DNA of 64,000 bases from sequence record NC_019500.1; one strand, written 5' to 3'. A program made the translations under genes and the position numbers. Each line of letters begins with the position of its first letter. The stretch's first letter is position 1. The notes under the pieces are model-generated. The model did not search any database and was not told the DNA's origin. It saw only the letters and a list, made by a program, of their open reading frames with translations. Shown here in pieces: positions 1,002-63,494 of this stretch. The DNA comes from Escherichia phage Bp7.

Positions 1002-1273
1002 TGAAATTTCGTCTAGTTAAATTTTCAGGTCTGAACTCAAAAGGTGAAAGCTTAGTAGCCTATTCAGTAGAATATAAAAAGTACTTTTTCTCTCGATGGA
1101 AATCGTACTATAAATCTGATTGGGTTTATGCCAACATGAATTACAAAACAGTACCTATTCTTGATAATTGCCATAGCCTATTAAGAGCTCTAAAAGAGCG
1201 TAACGCAACCACTATCAAAACTATCTGGAATAATTATGATTTTAACCGAACAAGAAACAATTCGTCTCCGTGA
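1001..1273 (+). CDS. hypothetical protein
   Basis: 90-aa ORF start-coupled to cd stop; no recognisable domain. Confidence 0.4.
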   Translation: MKFRLVKFSGLNSKGESLVAYSVEYKKYFFSRWKSYYKSDWVYANMNYKTVPILDNCHSLLRALKERNATTIKTIWNNYDFNRTRNNSSP

Positions 1274-20109: not shown

Positions 20110-20337
20110 TTAGAAATCTTCCTCTTCCTCGTCGTCCATCGACTCCAATTCAGCTCTCTTACCAGCCAATGCATCACGCACGCTAATATCATCCGAATCA
20201 CGAAGTTCGGCTTCCTTACTACGAGTTTTGTAATACTTTTCCAATTCCTTCAGACCATCCATAGTCTGACAAGAACCAATTTTAGCCATGAAGCTTTCAA
20301 TAGATGCTTCCTGAATAACTTCTTTAAAGGTTTTCAT
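20110..20337 (-). CDS. UvsW.1-like small acidic protein
   Basis: 75 aa with acidic tail DDEEEEDF; position relative to uvsW. Confidence 0.55.
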   Translation of the reverse strand: MKTFKEVIQEASIESFMAKIGSCQTMDGLKELEKYYKTRSKEAELRDSDDISVRDALAGKRAELESMDDEEEEDF

Positions 20338-21116
20338 AATATTTCCTCGAAAAATTTGGTAACCATTTTACCGTAATGCACATTAGGATAACCGGCTTTA
20401 ATGGCTTCTTTTGTAAATTTACCAACTTTAAGCTTTCCTGTATTTATCCAAAGCTCTTTAAGCTCATCATACATTAACCAGTGTGGATATTTCTTAGCCA
20501 AAGTAGCTTGCCAATTTTTAGAATGGTCCTCAGACCTAAACGATTTCTTTACACCTTTATTGGCTTTGCCAGCTTTTGAACACGTTTCATAATCTCCGGC
20601 TTTAATAGGTGTAAATCCTTTCATTGCTTTAGACCTTTTGGCTATGGTCTCTTTGGATTGCTTGGAGCCTTTATTTTTGGTCCAAGCCTTTTCTAAAGCT
20701 TTTAATTTGGCTTCTGTTAATCCAACTTTAGCCATAGCTTTTCGGTGTATTTCTCTTCGTTCATCAGTCCATTCATAAGAACCGTTTGTATTACCAATCA
20801 TGGCTTCGCTTATTAATCTAGAAGCATTTTCTTTTAAAATGGAAATAGACCTAGAGCTTATCTCATTTAATCTTTTGCCACATGTCATACCAAATGCGGC
20901 ACGCCATAATTTTCCACCTTGAGCTTTAGCCAAGATTATATGGCCCAAAATATGTTCCCTAATAGTCAATGCAACTAAATTGTTAGGGTCATCGGAACCA
21001 CCTATCGACTTAGGAATAATATGATGAATTTCGATTTTACAGGGCGCAGTAGCTTTGGTCCATCCTCTGGACCTAGCATTCTCTATTAAATCATCGTAAA
21101 TTTTCTGATAATTCAA
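20334..21116 (-). CDS. HNH homing endonuclease (free-standing, Mob-like)
   Basis: HNH motif IEIHHIIPKSIGGSDDPNNLVALTIREH; apparent TTG start overlapping uvsW stop and TGA stop overlapping uvsW.1 ATG. Confidence 0.8.
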   Translation of the reverse strand: MNYQKIYDDLIENARSRGWTKATAPCKIEIHHIIPKSIGGSDDPNNLVALTIREHILGHIILAKAQGGKLWRAAFGMTCGKRLNEISSRSISILKENASRLISEAMIGNTNGSYEWTDERREIHRKAMAKVGLTEAKLKALEKAWTKNKGSKQSKETIAKRSKAMKGFTPIKAGDYETCSKAGKANKGVKKSFRSEDHSKNWQATLAKKYPHWLMYDELKELWINTGKLKVGKFTKEAIKAGYPNVHYGKMVTKFFEEIL

Positions 21117-22616
21117 AGCTGCACCTCTTTCATAACATAATTAAATTTCTCGTCGGCGTATCGTTGTATACGTTCCAATCCATGTTTCAGGCAATAATTT
21201 AAATGAACATATTTCTTTTTAGAATCTTTAGATTTAGGGCGGACTCCCATATCATCCACGAGGTCCCAGACTTGGGCCACTTGTTTGCTATCGTGCTTAC
21301 GTAGAACACGCCCAATTGTTTGCAGAACAATGATTTTAGATTTTACGCCGTGAGCAAATACAACGTGGTGAAGGTTCTTAACGGAAATACCAGTAGAGAA
21401 CACACCATAACTTGCCACAACAATAATACCCTTACCATTTTCCGCCATTACTTTCAGAGCATTACGCGTTTCGGTATTAACTTCACCTGATACGTAATAA
21501 ACTTCTTTATGTTGCTCTTTAACCATTTCAAAAAGAGTTTTACCGTGTTCGATGTTTTTAAACATCAGGAATACGTTCTCTTCTTTCTTAGCGAGTTTAA
21601 CAGCTAAATTAGCAACCCATTTATTACGACGAGTAGCCTTAGTAATGACCTTGATTTCTGATTGGTAATCTTTACCTTTCATCTTAACAGTGAATTCGTC
21701 TGGGTATCGAAGGAAAATACTGTTGATTTTAAGGTCGGTAACCTGTCCTTCTTCCATTAACTGGGAAGTGGATACCGGCTTAAACACATCACCAAACAAA
21801 CCCATATATTGCATTAAATTAGCTTTACCATCTTTTAAAGAACCAGACAAACCGAATTTAAACATACAGTTGGTTAGGCCTTCGATGATAGTAGAAATAG
21901 ATTTACCTGTAGCCAAATGGCATTCGTCGTTCATAAACATACCGAACTGAGCAAACCATTCTTTAGGTTGCTTGATAGCAGTTTGATAAGTTGAAACGTA
22001 AATCATTGCATCAGAATCACGAGCAGTACCTGAACGAATACCAAGCATTGCTGCTTTAGGGAACAATCGATAATCGATGAAGTCATTAATCATCTGGTCG
22101 ACAAGTGCAGTAGTAGGAACCAGAATAAGGATTTTACCTTCATAGTTCTCAACGTAATATCGACTCAGGAGCGCCTGGATTAATGATTTACCTGCGGATG
22201 TAGGTAAATTCAGAATTGCACGACGTTTTGTCAGGCCGTTGTATACGGCTTCATTCTGATACCAATGAGGCTCAATCTTGGTAGACCCTGAATAAATTTC
22301 TTGAGAAGCTACCCATGAATCAAAATCTTCACGAGAAATATCTTCCTGTTCAAGAATACGCGGGTCAATCCACAGAGAATATTCAAATTGTTCAGCGAAC
22401 TTTTTAATTTGAGGGACAAGTCCATAAGGGCAAGTTTACGGCAGTTACGTAATCTAGAAGAAGAAGACTTCCATCCCATTGCCCATAACGAAATTTAGGG
22501 TTGAATTTATATCCATCGGCTTCAAAGCTAAAATAGTCTCTGAGTTCGTAGAATGTGGATTCATCACACTCAATACGAACATGACTAAAATTATCGAAAT
22601 GTACTTGAATTTGCAT
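21113..22616 (-). CDS. uvsW: UvsW DNA/RNA helicase with apparent +1 frameshift near 22428-22430
   Basis: N-terminal 55 aa in one frame, rest (Walker A PTSAGKS, DECH, QTIGRVLR) in adjacent frame; switch at a GGG run. Confidence 0.8.
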
Positions 22617-24224: not shown

Positions 24225-24517
24225 GCATTAAAGTACAAAATTCCTGTTTACAAGGACTCTAGTCTATGTTAAGATGGGTTTACCAACTCAACGAGAGAAT
24301 TGTTATGGATAAGGTTAAAGTACATTTTTTACACGAATCCGGGTTGAATTTTATAGAAATTGCTAAAAAAATGGGCGGGACCGCTAAGGATATGGCCAAA
24401 GCATGGGTTGATGTAGAACAAGCCTAGAGCCAAATTTAAAGCGAAAGAAAAGGTTGTTTATCGTAAAAGATTGAACAACAAGGTTCGGCGCAAAGCGCGT
24501 TCTGGTTCAAAGTAATA

Positions 24518-25663: not shown

Positions 25664-26944
25664 TTATTTTTCTAAAGGCGGTAATTTTACGCCGAGATAA
25701 GAACTCAATTGACTTTGATTAGCCATTTTGTCCATATCAGAACCATCAATAATGCGGGCTTCTTTATCGTCCTTAGCGACGGTATAAGGGTTTGCAGTCA
25801 ATGCATAACGAGCAAGCAATGCTACTGTAGGTTGTAAGCTTTCCGGGTCAACAATAACCTTAAATTCACCAACTGAAGTATCACCTTCTTCGTCAACCAC
25901 ATTCAAACCTTCCGTATAAGGCGCATAATATAAAGATGCGACCGTCTGTCCTTCACCCATCTGGGCATTTACACCAACAATAACATAATCACATGGACTA
26001 TTCATATCAGCATAAAGTGGTAGGCCATTCTTTAATATACCATAAGCCAATTCGTCCTGGTCTTCCTTTTTCTCAACCCAACCAGAGGCGGCGAGAATAG
26101 CAGCACAACGAGAACTAGCTACTGCATAAGTCCCGGCAAAAGAAGTCTGTCGTTGGACGGCAGAGTTCATCTCACACATATAATAATATAATGTGCGAGC
26201 ACGGTCCTGGGCATTATCGTAGCGAGGGTTGGTAAGGTCTAATACACCCTTTTCAGAAACACCCTGGACTTTAAAACGAGAGCTCACGGTAATTAATGAC
26301 TGTAATACATCCTTATTAATTTCTTCTGCCATTTGAATGCCTAGCAGATTTTCAACGAAATTAGGAGCATTAAACCCGTTAGATTCTAGGTCTTGGGCTA
26401 ATTCGACTGTCAATGAAGTTTTCAGTTTACGTGATTTAACTTCAGATTGCCATTTGTCGATGCGGAATCCGGTTTCAGCAATTTCAGGATGGCCTTGTTC
26501 AAATTTAGAAGTAATAGCAGCATCCGACACCATACGGATATGGCCGGCTGCCACTGCTTCAGAAATAACTTCGCTGAGGTTGGTTTCTGTGGTTCCGGCG
26601 AAAGGAGATGCTTCTAGAACTTTAAACACTACGCTTTCAAACTGGAACATATCACCGACCGCATAAGCTGTAGATGAATCAGTAAATTCTGGAATATTTT
26701 CACGTTCCGTCATACCAATCTGGCCCGCAAATGTTGCTCCACCAAGATAAGTCATTTTGTCGTCAGGGTTCAGTACACGTACCCCATACAGAGCAGCAAC
26801 CGGTTGATTTGTTTTTTGTTCAGCAACTAGGGCTTTAAAGATTCGTTTATTAGTTGCTTGGGTGTATGAAAGAAGAGCAGGACGGCCAACCGAGCTGGCA
26901 GCCGTCAATGTGGATTCTTTAATTAGGTCTACAATCTTAGACAT
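25664..26944 (-). CDS. gp24-like head vertex protein, divergent paralog
   Basis: 426 aa; shares LQSLITVS, VELAQDLESNGF, LARYALTANPYTVAKDDKEARIIDGSDMDKMA with adjacent gp24 at roughly half identity. Confidence 0.85.
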   Translation of the reverse strand: MSKIVDLIKESTLTAASSVGRPALLSYTQATNKRIFKALVAEQKTNQPVAALYGVRVLNPDDKMTYLGGATFAGQIGMTERENIPEFTDSSTAYAVGDMFQFESVVFKVLEASPFAGTTETNLSEVISEAVAAGHIRMVSDAAITSKFEQGHPEIAETGFRIDKWQSEVKSRKLKTSLTVELAQDLESNGFNAPNFVENLLGIQMAEEINKDVLQSLITVSSRFKVQGVSEKGVLDLTNPRYDNAQDRARTLYYYMCEMNSAVQRQTSFAGTYAVASSRCAAILAASGWVEKKEDQDELAYGILKNGLPLYADMNSPCDYVIVGVNAQMGEGQTVASLYYAPYTEGLNVVDEEGDTSVGEFKVIVDPESLQPTVALLARYALTANPYTVAKDDKEARIIDGSDMDKMANQSQLSSYLGVKLPPLEK

Positions 26945-28227
26945 TAATCAGCCTCGTAAATAATTGCCGGAAGTTTAACGCCAACCAGATAAGACATATT
27001 GCTCTGTCCAGCCATTAAATCCATATTGGTTGCATCGATAACACGAGCTTCTTTATCGTCTTTAGCCACGGTGTACGGGTTAGCTGATAGTGCATAACGA
27101 ACCATCAGAGAAATAGAAGGTTGTAATGAATCCGGGTCAACAATAACCTTATAAGCACCGACGTGTTCTTGGTCATCTAAATCTAAGCCTTCGGTATAGG
27201 GAGCGTAGAAAATAGAACCGACAACTTCATTACCGCCGTAATTCTCTTTAACACCAACGGTAACATAATCTAATGGACTGTTAACGTCACAAAACAGAGG
27301 CAGACCATTCAACAAATATCCGTATGCAGTTTCCGGAAGCCAATTATTATCTTCGGGTTTATGTTTTAACCAGCCAGAACCTGCAAGCATTGCAGCCACA
27401 CGACTTGAAGCCACAACAAACGTGCCAGAATAAGAAGTAGTTTTCTGGATTTCAGAATTCATCTCACAAACGAGTTCATAAAGTTTACGTGCAGATTCAG
27501 GAGCACTGTCATAAGACAAATCGATGATGCCGTTATCAGATACACCAGTAACTTTATAACGTTTGGATACGGTTATTAGAGATTGCAGAACGTCTTTATT
27601 AATTTCATCTGCCATTACTGTAGCCAAGAGGTCTTCTAAGAACGCCGGCGCGTCAAAGCCATTTGATTCCATATCCTGCGCTAATTCTACAGTCAAAGCC
27701 GTCTTCAATTTACGGGTCTTAACCGGAGCATTCCATTTATTAACCTGGAATACGGCATCAGAGATTTCTACATCACTCGCTTCAAATTTAGTGGTATGGG
27801 CAGCATCAGGAACCAGACGACATGTTAATGACACTAAACCTTCTTGAAGAGCATCAGCCAATTCTGTGGCGCTAGTGGACGCGAGTGGGCTTGCTTTAAG
27901 AGCCTTATAAACCACATTCTGATACTTGAAATATTCACCCTGAGCAATCGCCTGGGCCTTATCTGTGAGTTCTGGGATAGTTTCACGGTCTTTAGAACCA
28001 ACTTCACCACCATAAGAGGCACCTGTCTGGAAACTAAATTCATTATCAGGGGTAAGATATTTGACACCATACAGTGCAGCAATAGGCTGGCTAGTACGTT
28101 GTTCGGCGATAATATCACGGTAAATCAATTTGGTTGTAGCACGGGTCAAAGCAACAAGATTAGGGCGACCCAATGAGTTGCTGGAAGTAGTTGTTGACTC
28201 GCGCAGTAATTCGTTAATCTTTGCCAT
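26944..28227 (-). CDS. 24: head vertex protein gp24
   Basis: 427 aa; MAKINELLRESTTT... matches remembered T4 gp24. Confidence 0.9.
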   Translation of the reverse strand: MAKINELLRESTTTSSNSLGRPNLVALTRATTKLIYRDIIAEQRTSQPIAALYGVKYLTPDNEFSFQTGASYGGEVGSKDRETIPELTDKAQAIAQGEYFKYQNVVYKALKASPLASTSATELADALQEGLVSLTCRLVPDAAHTTKFEASDVEISDAVFQVNKWNAPVKTRKLKTALTVELAQDMESNGFDAPAFLEDLLATVMADEINKDVLQSLITVSKRYKVTGVSDNGIIDLSYDSAPESARKLYELVCEMNSEIQKTTSYSGTFVVASSRVAAMLAGSGWLKHKPEDNNWLPETAYGYLLNGLPLFCDVNSPLDYVTVGVKENYGGNEVVGSIFYAPYTEGLDLDDQEHVGAYKVIVDPDSLQPSISLMVRYALSANPYTVAKDDKEARVIDATNMDLMAGQSNMSYLVGVKLPAIIYEAD

Positions 28228-32135: not shown

Positions 32136-32380
32136 TATTCGTCGTCCTCGTCATCATCCGCATCGTCAGATTCTTTTTTGTCTTTCTTATCTGCTTTATC
32201 GGATTTTTCGTCGTCTTCGTCATCTTCGTCAGCTTCTTCGCCTTCAATCATAACGGAGCGAGCAATTTCTGCTTTACGGGCTTCAATCAAAGCGGTTACT
32301 CGAGATTCGATAAGCGGGGCTGCTGCTTTACGAACTGCTACGAGGTCGTTTGATTTAATAGCTTCGATTAAATCTTCCAT
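32135..32380 (-). CDS. 67: prohead core protein
   Basis: 81 aa, acidic tail; synteny. Confidence 0.8.
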
Positions 32381-33953
32381 TAGAAATCCTCTTCTTCTTC
32401 ATCTGGGTTTTGGAAACGAGCCTCTTTAGACTCTTCTTCAATTTGCTTAGCTTCTTGATTAATTTCTTCGTCGGTCATTTGGAGGAAATCTTTCATAGCC
32501 GTTTGATGTGAAATGTACTTACCAATAAATGGTTCAGCCATCGTTAGCATATTGATTCTGCGTTCCATGATTTCAGCATCTTTCATTTCACTGAAATAGC
32601 TATCACGGTTAAACGTAACTTTAATATTATTTATTTCCTTTTCCCACTCATCTTCTGTAATAATCTTTTTAAGAATGAGGTTTGTTTTTAACGGGTCTAG
32701 GAAAATTTCTTCAAATTTGTTTTGTAGTTGACGAATCCATTTAGAGAATTTTAATTCGTCACGAGTGATTGCTGTACCGGCATCAAACATAACACCAGAA
32801 TTAGACTCGCTAGGGATACGTGATTCAGGAACACGCAACGCACGGTAAAGTGCTGTGCGGAAATAAAGAACGTCATCCATATCACTCATACCAGTAGCAC
32901 CTGGCATTGTATCAACTTCTGTTACCGCTTTACCATCACGACGTTGCAACCAATAGTCTTCAGTCATGGACATATTGTGTTGTTGGTTTTTAATTTTACC
33001 TGTCGAAGCATCATACACCACACGGTTTTTCATCGTGTTCATGATATGTTGCATTTGTGCTGCAGCCTTACGTGAAGGCATATTACCTGTATCGATATAA
33101 AACACACGACGGTCAGGAGCACGTGTAATACGGTAGATGACCATTGCGTCTTCCATCAATTTAAGCTGGTTTGCAGGCTTAATAGCACGTTGCAAATAGC
33201 CAATGATGTTTTTACCACAACAATCTAATAATCCAGAATGAGCATAAACCACTGCAGCACGAGGAATTTTAACTTTAGTCCCGGCTGAATAAATGCGTCC
33301 ATCTGCGCAATAGCTTTCATGACCTGTGTCGTAAACGAAAAACTCGCGATATCCGTCTACAACTTTAACGCCATCTTCCATACGTGTAACGATTTCACGA
33401 ATATATTGGACTTGGCGTGGGTCTAAGCGACGAAGCTCTTGTACGCCATCTTTCATTTTTTTAGGGTTTATAATTTTATGAAAGAAAATTCTTGAGTCTA
33501 CATACCAGCGTTGGAAATGGTCAGTGCCTTTACGTTGGAAATTTAAAAGGTTTAAAACTTCACTGAATTCGGCCAAGATTTTATCTTTAATTGCTTGACT
33601 AAATTCTGTCCCGTCTAAATTCAATGCAACTACTTCTTTATCATCTCATAGACAATAGCGTCAGACACAATTTCCTGTACGGCGTTGTCGACTTCATAGT
33701 TGTTCATTAAATTACGGTAGGTATCAATAAGTTCCCTGGTATTTTTAACTTCAGGCTCATTACTACCAAACATCTGTTGCATAAGAGCATTATAAGGAAT
33801 ATTTTGCTCTTGTGTCTCAATTTCGCGAGCGCCATCATCAAGCTTAGGTGCGGTGACAGACTCTAAATTGTTATTAATTTGTTGTTTGAATTCTTTTTCG
33901 TCTTCATTAGCCCATGGCTTAAGAAAACTTAATATTGTATTAAAGTTTGCCAT
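32380..33953 (-). CDS. 20: portal vertex protein with apparent single-base deletion near 33642-33647
   Basis: N-terminal 107 aa and C-terminal 414 aa lie in adjacent frames and together align to T4 gp20 (about 524 aa). Confidence 0.88.
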
Positions 33954-34010: not shown

Positions 34011-34592
34011 TCATTCATTTTCATGTTTGTGATAACGTGTTATAGCCGAACGAGTTGATTCAACACCACAGATAGGGCAAATCATCCTTGGCTGATTAAT
34101 CTTTTTGCCTTTAGCCGGATGTTCTTTACCAAACATCGGATTACCTTCACCAGACATAGCTTTGGCTTGGTCTGGTCGCTTACGTCCTTTTAGAGCTTTA
34201 GAATGTTCAGGCCTCTTTTTACCTAACCTACAATCTCTTTGTAGCTGTTTGGCATGTTCACTCATTGGAATCCCTTTACGAGACATTCCAAAGAACCCGT
34301 CAGGCTGAGCTAATGACATATTTATATAGTTTTTAGATTTAACTACATTATACTTTATTTGAAGCTCTTTCTCAGCTATACGAGCTTCTTTATCGGTTTC
34401 AAATAAAGATAAAATTCTGGTTTTGAAAAGGTGCGGATTTTCTTTACGTTCTAGATTCCAAATCTTTTTATATGCTTGGGATAATACAGAACCATTATAT
34501 CCTTCTTTGAGAATCCTTTCAACGTATGTTGAGCCAATATAACGACGGGGTAGTTTAGACCCCGTGTATATGGTTAAGTAAGTACAATACAT
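34011..34592 (-). CDS. GIY-YIG (Seg-like) homing endonuclease
   Basis: N-terminal YLTIYTGSKLPRRYIGST, basic C-terminal DNA-binding region; intergenic between 20 and 19. Confidence 0.6.
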   Translation of the reverse strand: MYCTYLTIYTGSKLPRRYIGSTYVERILKEGYNGSVLSQAYKKIWNLERKENPHLFKTRILSLFETDKEARIAEKELQIKYNVVKSKNYINMSLAQPDGFFGMSRKGIPMSEHAKQLQRDCRLGKKRPEHSKALKGRKRPDQAKAMSGEGNPMFGKEHPAKGKKINQPRMICPICGVESTRSAITRYHKHENE

Positions 34593-35188: not shown

Positions 35189-35860
35189 TCATGATAGTTT
35201 TCCATTTGGTTGTTTTGATTCAATCATATTTATAAGAGTTTTTAAGCTCATCCCACAGCCATCTGATTTGGAAAGATTTTCTTCCCACGGAATAATTTGC
35301 AAGTTACAAATATGGCCTATATGTTCTGCGGGTATTTTATTATCATAACCAAATTTCTTAGATATTATATGGTCTAATTGATAAGCACCTTTGACTCCGC
35401 ACTTGCCTATTTTAGTAAAATTCTTCATTTTACTTATTTCATTTCTATATTTATACTGATGACGCTTGACATCCATACAATATTTATGATATTTTTTCTT
35501 ATCAATCCAGTGTTCTTTAGATTTGAGACCTTTACCTGTTCTATTTTTGGAAATTTTAGGCCCTTTGGTTTTACGGATTTTTATGCCTTCATCAGAATTC
35601 CAATATTCTTTTCTTGTTTCTGAATAGACTTCCCAGCGATGTTCTTTACAGAACTTAGAATTTGTTTCATTAAGACGTCCTTTTGTTACAGTATAATAAG
35701 TGCCACATTTATCACATTTACATGTAACAGCAATTTTTCCAGGACAATCTTCTAATTTTATTAAATGAGAGCTTCCACTTTTAACTTGATATCCGAGATT
35801 TTTAAAAGCAGAAACATTGCGATTCGTTATAGGTATTTCAAATAGAGTATTAGTAATCAT
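35189..35860 (-). CDS. HNH homing endonuclease with N-terminal Cys cluster
   Basis: QLDHIISKKFGYDNKIPAEHIGHICNLQIIPWEENLSKS; late-promoter-like TATAAATA at 35866-35873. Confidence 0.75.
   Translation of the reverse strand: MITNTLFEIPITNRNVSAFKNLGYQVKSGSSHLIKLEDCPGKIAVTCKCDKCGTYYTVTKGRLNETNSKFCKEHRWEVYSETRKEYWNSDEGIKIRKTKGPKISKNRTGKGLKSKEHWIDKKKYHKYCMDVKRHQYKYRNEISKMKNFTKIGKCGVKGAYQLDHIISKKFGYDNKIPAEHIGHICNLQIIPWEENLSKSDGCGMSLKTLINMIESKQPNGKLS

Positions 35861-62849: not shown

Positions 62850-63494
<645 letters not shown>

Follow-up and report, generated by a model that had tools for sequence, protein, structure and literature searches.

The portal gene of Escherichia phage Bp7 (gene 20) is interrupted in the public genome sequence by the loss of a single base. 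Comparison with related genomes indicates that this break is very probably an error that entered the Bp7 record (HQ829472 / NC_019500) through sequencing, base-calling, assembly or cloning, and we infer that the phage DNA itself still has the missing base. In codon 103/104, a GG pair would have been reduced to a single G in base-calling, in assembly or during shotgun cloning. The real Bp7 would carry an intact 1575-nt gene 20 encoding a normal 524-aa T4-type portal, and the annotators would then have given each of the two ORFs so created a "portal" CDS of its own. The genome record comprises 168,066 bp, and HQ829472 is given as Escherichia phage Bp7 in PMC6563131. All seven proteins from the window that were looked up have an exact match among Bp7 entries (AEN93xxx / YP_0070042xx). 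The analysis presented here covers a 64-kb stretch of this genome, referred to as the window, and positions are counted from its first base.

On the minus strand, Bp7 has GAGAT where every aligned relative has GAGGAT (plus-strand CATCTC versus CATCCTC), i.e. one G of the GG pair is absent, corresponding to one C of CC at 33644/33645 on the plus strand. The alignment took in ABTNLS3, QL01, IME08, JS98, WG01, LQ5 and FB. A preliminary description made from the Bp7 sequence alone had proposed a single-base frame change in gene 20 at plus-strand catctc, 33642-33647; the loss of one G relative to these seven relatives bears this out, and the position proves to be exact. The same description had a 107-codon N-terminal part followed by a continuation in the adjacent frame, and the ORFs are indeed arranged in this way (33953..33630, then the -1 frame to 32380). 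Within the initiating frame, which opens with an ATG at 33953 and closes at the premature TAG, codons 1-103 are genuine portal sequence and codons 104-107 (MIKK) are out-of-frame read-through. The 421-codon C-terminal part ends in EEEEDF with its stop at 32380, and its protein is 100% identical to residues 104-524 of the QL01 portal. Because the C-terminal frame has a TGA directly upstream of the junction, the stretch open in both frames is limited to 16 nt (33645-33630, minus strand), which read GATGATAAAGAAGTAG. As deposited, Bp7 gene 20 is not a single uninterrupted ORF, whereas the gene is uninterrupted in all relatives.

Table 1. Features of the broken portal gene and the other private lesions in the window.
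Feature	Position	Strand	Basis
Portal N-terminal fragment, 107 codons plus TAG	33630..33953	minus	ORF; Portal_T4 profile match 2-32
Premature TAG in the initiating frame	33630..33632	minus	product of the frame change
Site of the missing base	33644..33645	minus	alignment with relatives
Remainder of gene 20, -1 frame, 421 codons plus stop	32380..33645	minus	Portal_T4 profile match 33-433
TGA in the C-terminal frame, directly upstream of the junction	33646..33648	minus	sequence
A_AAG, sole slip-compatible motif in the 16-nt overlap	33636..33639	minus	sequence
uvsW, private net 7-nt insertion and clustered substitutions	22404..22480	minus	comparison with relatives
Gene 24.3 (DUF2774), private 1-nt insertion and adjacent substitution	24425..24430	plus	comparison with relatives
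57B/Acb1, private extra T (T4 to T5)	63479..63484	plus	comparison with relatives
Gene 31.2, private T deletion (TT to T)	1222..1225	plus	comparison with relatives

Restoring one base gives a 1575-nt gene and a protein of 524 aa. The preliminary estimate of about 521 aa was slightly short; 524 aa is the length of every Dhakavirus portal and of T4 gp20. The repaired protein is identical to the QL01/WG01 portal at 523 of 524 positions, and its residues 4-524 align colinearly with residues 3-524 of T4 gp20 (6uzc; E = 1.1e-273). In the alignment with T4 gp20 (PDB 6UZC), the junction falls between E103 and D104, within the conserved stretch VYEDD(T/K)EVVALNLD. Against the Pfam profile PF07230 (Portal_T4; cut-off 22.9 bits) the repaired protein scores 642 bits, the C-terminal fragment 597 and the N-terminal fragment 28.4, all three being above the cut-off. 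The N-terminal piece matches profile positions 2-32 and the C-terminal piece positions 33-433, exactly adjoining and without overlap, which points to one gene broken inside a conserved domain and not to two genes. A chance pattern of ORFs was rejected on the same grounds.

The neighbours of the gene follow the order 19, 20, 67, 68, 21, 22, 23, which is standard for T4-type phages (tblastn of QL01 proteins, together with the annotated relatives). Compared with T4 gp20 (PDB 6UZC, 3JA7; PF07230), the repaired Bp7 protein thus has the same length, is colinear and lies in the same gene order, whereas in the deposited ORF the break separates codon 103 from codon 104. The portal genes of other Dhakavirus phages (QL01, WG01, JS98, IME08, VR5, FB, ABTNLS3 and others) share 94-99.4% nucleotide identity with that of Bp7 and consist in all cases of one unbroken 1575-nt ORF, the G being missing only in Bp7. 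Apart from the deletion, the sole private difference in the Bp7 portal gene is an adjacent 2-nt change in codon 22 (33888..33889, minus strand), which reads TTC (F) in Bp7 and TAT (Y) in seven relatives. The exact repaired portal sequence is absent from the protein collection because of this private F22 codon.

One difference from T4 gene order, shared with QL01, is a GIY-YIG-like ORF that separates tail tube gene 19 from portal gene 20 (193 aa, 34011-34592, minus strand). It has a weak, sub-threshold match to a SegE-type GIY-YIG profile (E = 0.0046, 17.6 bits versus a cut-off of 25) and is 100% identical to a QL01 ORF that RefSeq names "HNH endonuclease"; at the same position it is absent from WG01, FB, JS98, IME08, ABTNLS3 and VR5. 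This ORF is probably a free-standing homing endonuclease. A connection between it and the frameshift was considered and rejected, since QL01 carries the identical ORF with identical flanks next to an intact portal gene.

Between sheath gene 18 and tube gene 19 lies a 223-aa ORF (35189-35860, minus strand) that has no Pfam match and hardly occurs outside Bp7 (a cluster of 4); in QL01 this place is taken by an unrelated ORF of 206 aa, and most relatives have nothing, so that the gap between genes 18 and 19 looks like an insertion hot spot for mobile ORFs. Inserted between uvsW and uvsW.1 is a 260-aa homing endonuclease of the HNH family (20334-21116, minus strand; Pfam HNH, E = 6e-6), which QL01, WG01, LQ5 and FB lack. 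UGJNEcP3/4 and several Logan contigs have this endonuclease together with an intact uvsW. At 25664-28227 (minus strand), two gp24-like genes for head vertex proteins stand in tandem (426 and 427 aa); they are about 64% identical in DNA, and the same pair is found in QL01, WG01 and FB.

The portal split is already in the public record, as the two portal CDSs of the GenBank/RefSeq annotation are exactly the two ORFs found here. AEN93953.1 / YP_007004277.1 (107 aa, "portal vertex protein of head [Escherichia phage Bp7]") is the N-terminal fragment, and among about 15 billion proteins it clusters with no other. AEN93952.1 / YP_007004276.1 (414 aa, with a TTG start at 33624; 32380-33624) is the annotated C-terminal piece, and all other members listed in its cluster are 524-aa Dhakavirus portals. 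Both entries are named as ordinary portal CDSs, and these names carry no frameshift, pseudogene or sequencing-problem flag.

If the two entries were real proteins, the portal would be truly split, with a 107-aa fragment and a 414-aa fragment, the latter made by re-initiation at the TTG, associating non-covalently into a working portal. The TTG lies only 5 nt after the TAG, which could allow termination-reinitiation, and T4-type phages provide a precedent in essential genes that are split, such as the topoisomerase genes 39 and 60. Nevertheless, a split portal is extremely unlikely. The break cuts through the conserved Portal_T4 domain (profile positions 32/33) instead of falling at a domain boundary, the two-piece portal would lack seven conserved residues (DDKEVVA) and carry four wrong ones, and the junction contains no insert, unlike known split phage genes. 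The arrangement is absent from all relatives, and the loss of 1 nt explains the whole of it.

The deletion is private to this one record. A 71-nt query across the site matched 36 phage records by megablast, none of them (0/36) at 100% identity; the best 10 of the 36 all match at 98.6%, with 72 bases against 71 in the query, that is, with a single gap. The mutant string had no exact match in viral, genome and metagenome contig collections, and the wild-type string was found in 6 viral contigs. The nearest phage records are Dhakavirus genomes at ~97-98% identity, none of which is identical to the Bp7 window.

There is also no sign that the gene has begun to degenerate. Compared with VR5, the repaired gene shows 98 synonymous and 11 non-synonymous codon differences spread across both halves (19/2 in the N-terminal part and 79/9 in the C-terminal part); compared with JS98, the corresponding values are 13/1 and 62/6. 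In these codon comparisons neither half of gene 20 showed the relaxed constraint or further decay of a true pseudogene, and the private changes are limited to the deletion and one codon.

A deletion that is real could be tolerated if ribosomes restored the reading frame. By -1 slippage of tRNA-Lys on A_AAG (33639-33636), a full-length portal could be produced from the sequence as deposited; the product would be a protein of 524 aa reading ...VYEMIKEVVAL..., with the presumed changes D104M and D105I, and 12 copies of it would be needed per virion. The geometry of the site is compatible with such an event: both frames are open over 16 nt, this zone includes A_AAG, and the product would keep the exact wild-type length. 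A_AAG permits -1 slippage in E. coli. Slippage at this site is nonetheless highly improbable. The overlap zone contains no slippery heptamer of the form X_XXY_YYZ; none can be formed at A_AAG, since re-pairing in the -1 frame is impossible for the AUA codon before it. The 81 nt that follow show no significant stimulatory fold (MFE -14.4 kcal/mol, z = -1.54, 14 of 200 shuffles folding equally well or better), and the deletion itself removes the sole upstream Shine-Dalgarno-like element, GAGG. Relatives in which no shift is needed have identical flanks. As the two-frame arrangement occurs in none of the 36 related phage records and has no match in the three contig collections, nothing appears to have been selected for slippage.

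Comparison with known programmed -1 frameshifting, such as that of E. coli dnaX (A_AAA_AAG) and the tail assembly chaperone G/GT of tailed phages, leads to the same view. The Bp7 site shares with these systems the direction of the shift needed, and the tetranucleotide A_AAG is present in its overlap zone. In contrast to them, it lacks a heptamer, a significant downstream structure, an upstream Shine-Dalgarno-like element and conservation of the two-frame arrangement. Programmed recoding was rejected for want of a heptamer, of significant structure and of conservation.

The reading of the break as an error in the record gains weight from the rest of the window. The annotated CDSs of QL01 across the syntenic 64 kb were all translated and compared with the window by tblastn, and the comparison was repeated on WG01, LQ5 and FB. 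In Bp7 there are four internal frame splits (57B/Acb1, gene 20, 24.3 and uvsW) and a C-terminal change in 31.2. By contrast, no frame splits were detected with the QL01 proteins in the syntenic regions of WG01, LQ5 and FB. At all five sites the four relatives agree among themselves and Bp7 alone differs. The list of private lesions was compiled manually from alignments; an automatic indel count missed the portal, 57B and 31.2 sites, likely as a result of differing gap placement between alignments and of the 95% identity filter. If slippage were to account for gene 20, the four other private frame breaks would each require their own explanation.

These lesions are of two kinds. Changes in the length of short homopolymers are seen in 57B (T4 to T5), 31.2 (TT to T) and gene 20 (GG to G). 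The extra T cuts the anti-CBASS protein 57B/Acb1 of Bp7 to 135 aa, while other members of its cluster have 151-152 aa, and the T deletion in gene 31.2, two codons before the stop, lengthens the ORF from 77 to 90 aa. Small local scrambles are seen in 24.3 and uvsW. In gene 24.3, the insertion and the adjacent substitution (GCCTAGAGCC versus GCC-AAGGCC) create a TAG and change the frame after codon 40 of 69. In uvsW, a net 7-nt insertion with clustered substitutions (GGATGGAAGTCTTCTTCTTCTAGATTACGTAACTGCCGTAAACTTGCCC in Bp7 versus GGACGGACGTATTCGCCTTCTGGATTACAACCGTAAACTTCC in the relatives) leaves an N-terminal fragment annotated as a 70-aa "DNA helicase ATPase" (AEN93939.1), and a 326-aa ORF restarts at 22093. 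The uvsW lesion is more complex than a simple miscall and could stem from poor consensus, or else uvsW, which is non-essential, could really be damaged.

Simple repairs restore known proteins at three of these sites. Removal of one T from 57B gives a 151-aa protein with an exact match in Logan contigs, and a one-base repair of 31.2 gives a 77-aa protein with an exact match in Logan/ENA contigs. Both matches come from other phages that were sequenced independently of Bp7. For 24.3, removing the inserted base alone gave no match in the protein collection; with the insertion removed and the adjacent substitution reverted, the protein is an exact match to that of phages E33 and MN04. Logan contigs that carry the exact HNH endonuclease or RnlB of Bp7 have intact uvsW and 24.3 genes.

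Not all private features of the record are necessarily errors. In the 48 kb that could be aligned to all four relatives, Bp7 has ~500 private substitutions, equivalent to ~1% divergence on its own branch. Bp7 is therefore truly divergent, so that not every private indel need be an error, and some of them, especially intergenic ones, may be real. Adjacent pairs like that in portal codon 22 are frequent in the window, with 41 such pairs among the 500 private substitutions; problems in base-calling, or recombination with relatives that have not been sampled, might lie behind them.

A mutation could also be real and yet confined to the DNA molecule or molecules that were sequenced, either a defective subpopulation or a shotgun clone, with the viable population remaining intact. 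In the clone version, an inactivating mutation acquired by the insert would have allowed the clone to survive in E. coli. Loss of one G from a GG pair is a commonplace event of the slippage type, and the complex uvsW and 24.3 lesions resemble a damaged template or poor local consensus more than simple homopolymer miscalls. However, a lethal allele should not become the consensus when a viable lysate is sequenced, and five independent lesions in 64 kb would require several defective templates, making a mutation restricted to the template unlikely. In practice it is hard to separate from an error in the record, and its biological meaning is the same, as the working phage would have an intact gene in either case.

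In T4, gene 20 is essential for head assembly; proheads are built starting from the portal, and viable heads do not form in amber mutants. Bp7 is viable, so that a null allele fixed in the working stock is not credible. The phage was isolated in ~2012, has been propagated, and was still in experimental use in 2020-2024 (host range, receptor binding, comparison with LHE83).

Taken together, these observations favour an error in the deposited sequence. The preliminary description had already judged the break most likely to be an error of sequencing or assembly, given that the portal is essential, and that reading is supported by a deletion private to one record, by four other private frame disruptions in the same 64 kb with none in three relatives, by simple repairs after which the proteins match those of relatives exactly or almost exactly, by the lack of decay and by the viability of the phage. 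The pattern is that of an artefact: the lesion is private to one record and the close relatives agree with each other, other frame disruptions are present in Bp7 and absent from the comparable records WG01, LQ5 and FB, and minimal repair yields known or nearly known proteins (portal, 57B, 31.2, 24.3). Against an error speaks the change from GG to G, as a 2-base run is not the site of a classic long-homopolymer miscall.

The finding carries no new biology unless the gene 20 deletion proves to be real. If the portal were in fact made by slippage, an essential phage structural gene would be rescued by unprogrammed, low-level frameshifting. Otherwise the case is a matter of database hygiene. RefSeq NC_019500 lists the portal fragments (107 and 414 aa), the short Acb1/57B and the uvsW and 24.3 fragments as real proteins, and false inferences such as a "split portal" or a "short Acb1" might be drawn from the Bp7 record; the "short Acb1" of Bp7 should not be trusted. 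Through UniRef and clustered protein sets, which the Bp7 fragments enter, they can mislead comparative or pangenome analyses of Dhakavirus.
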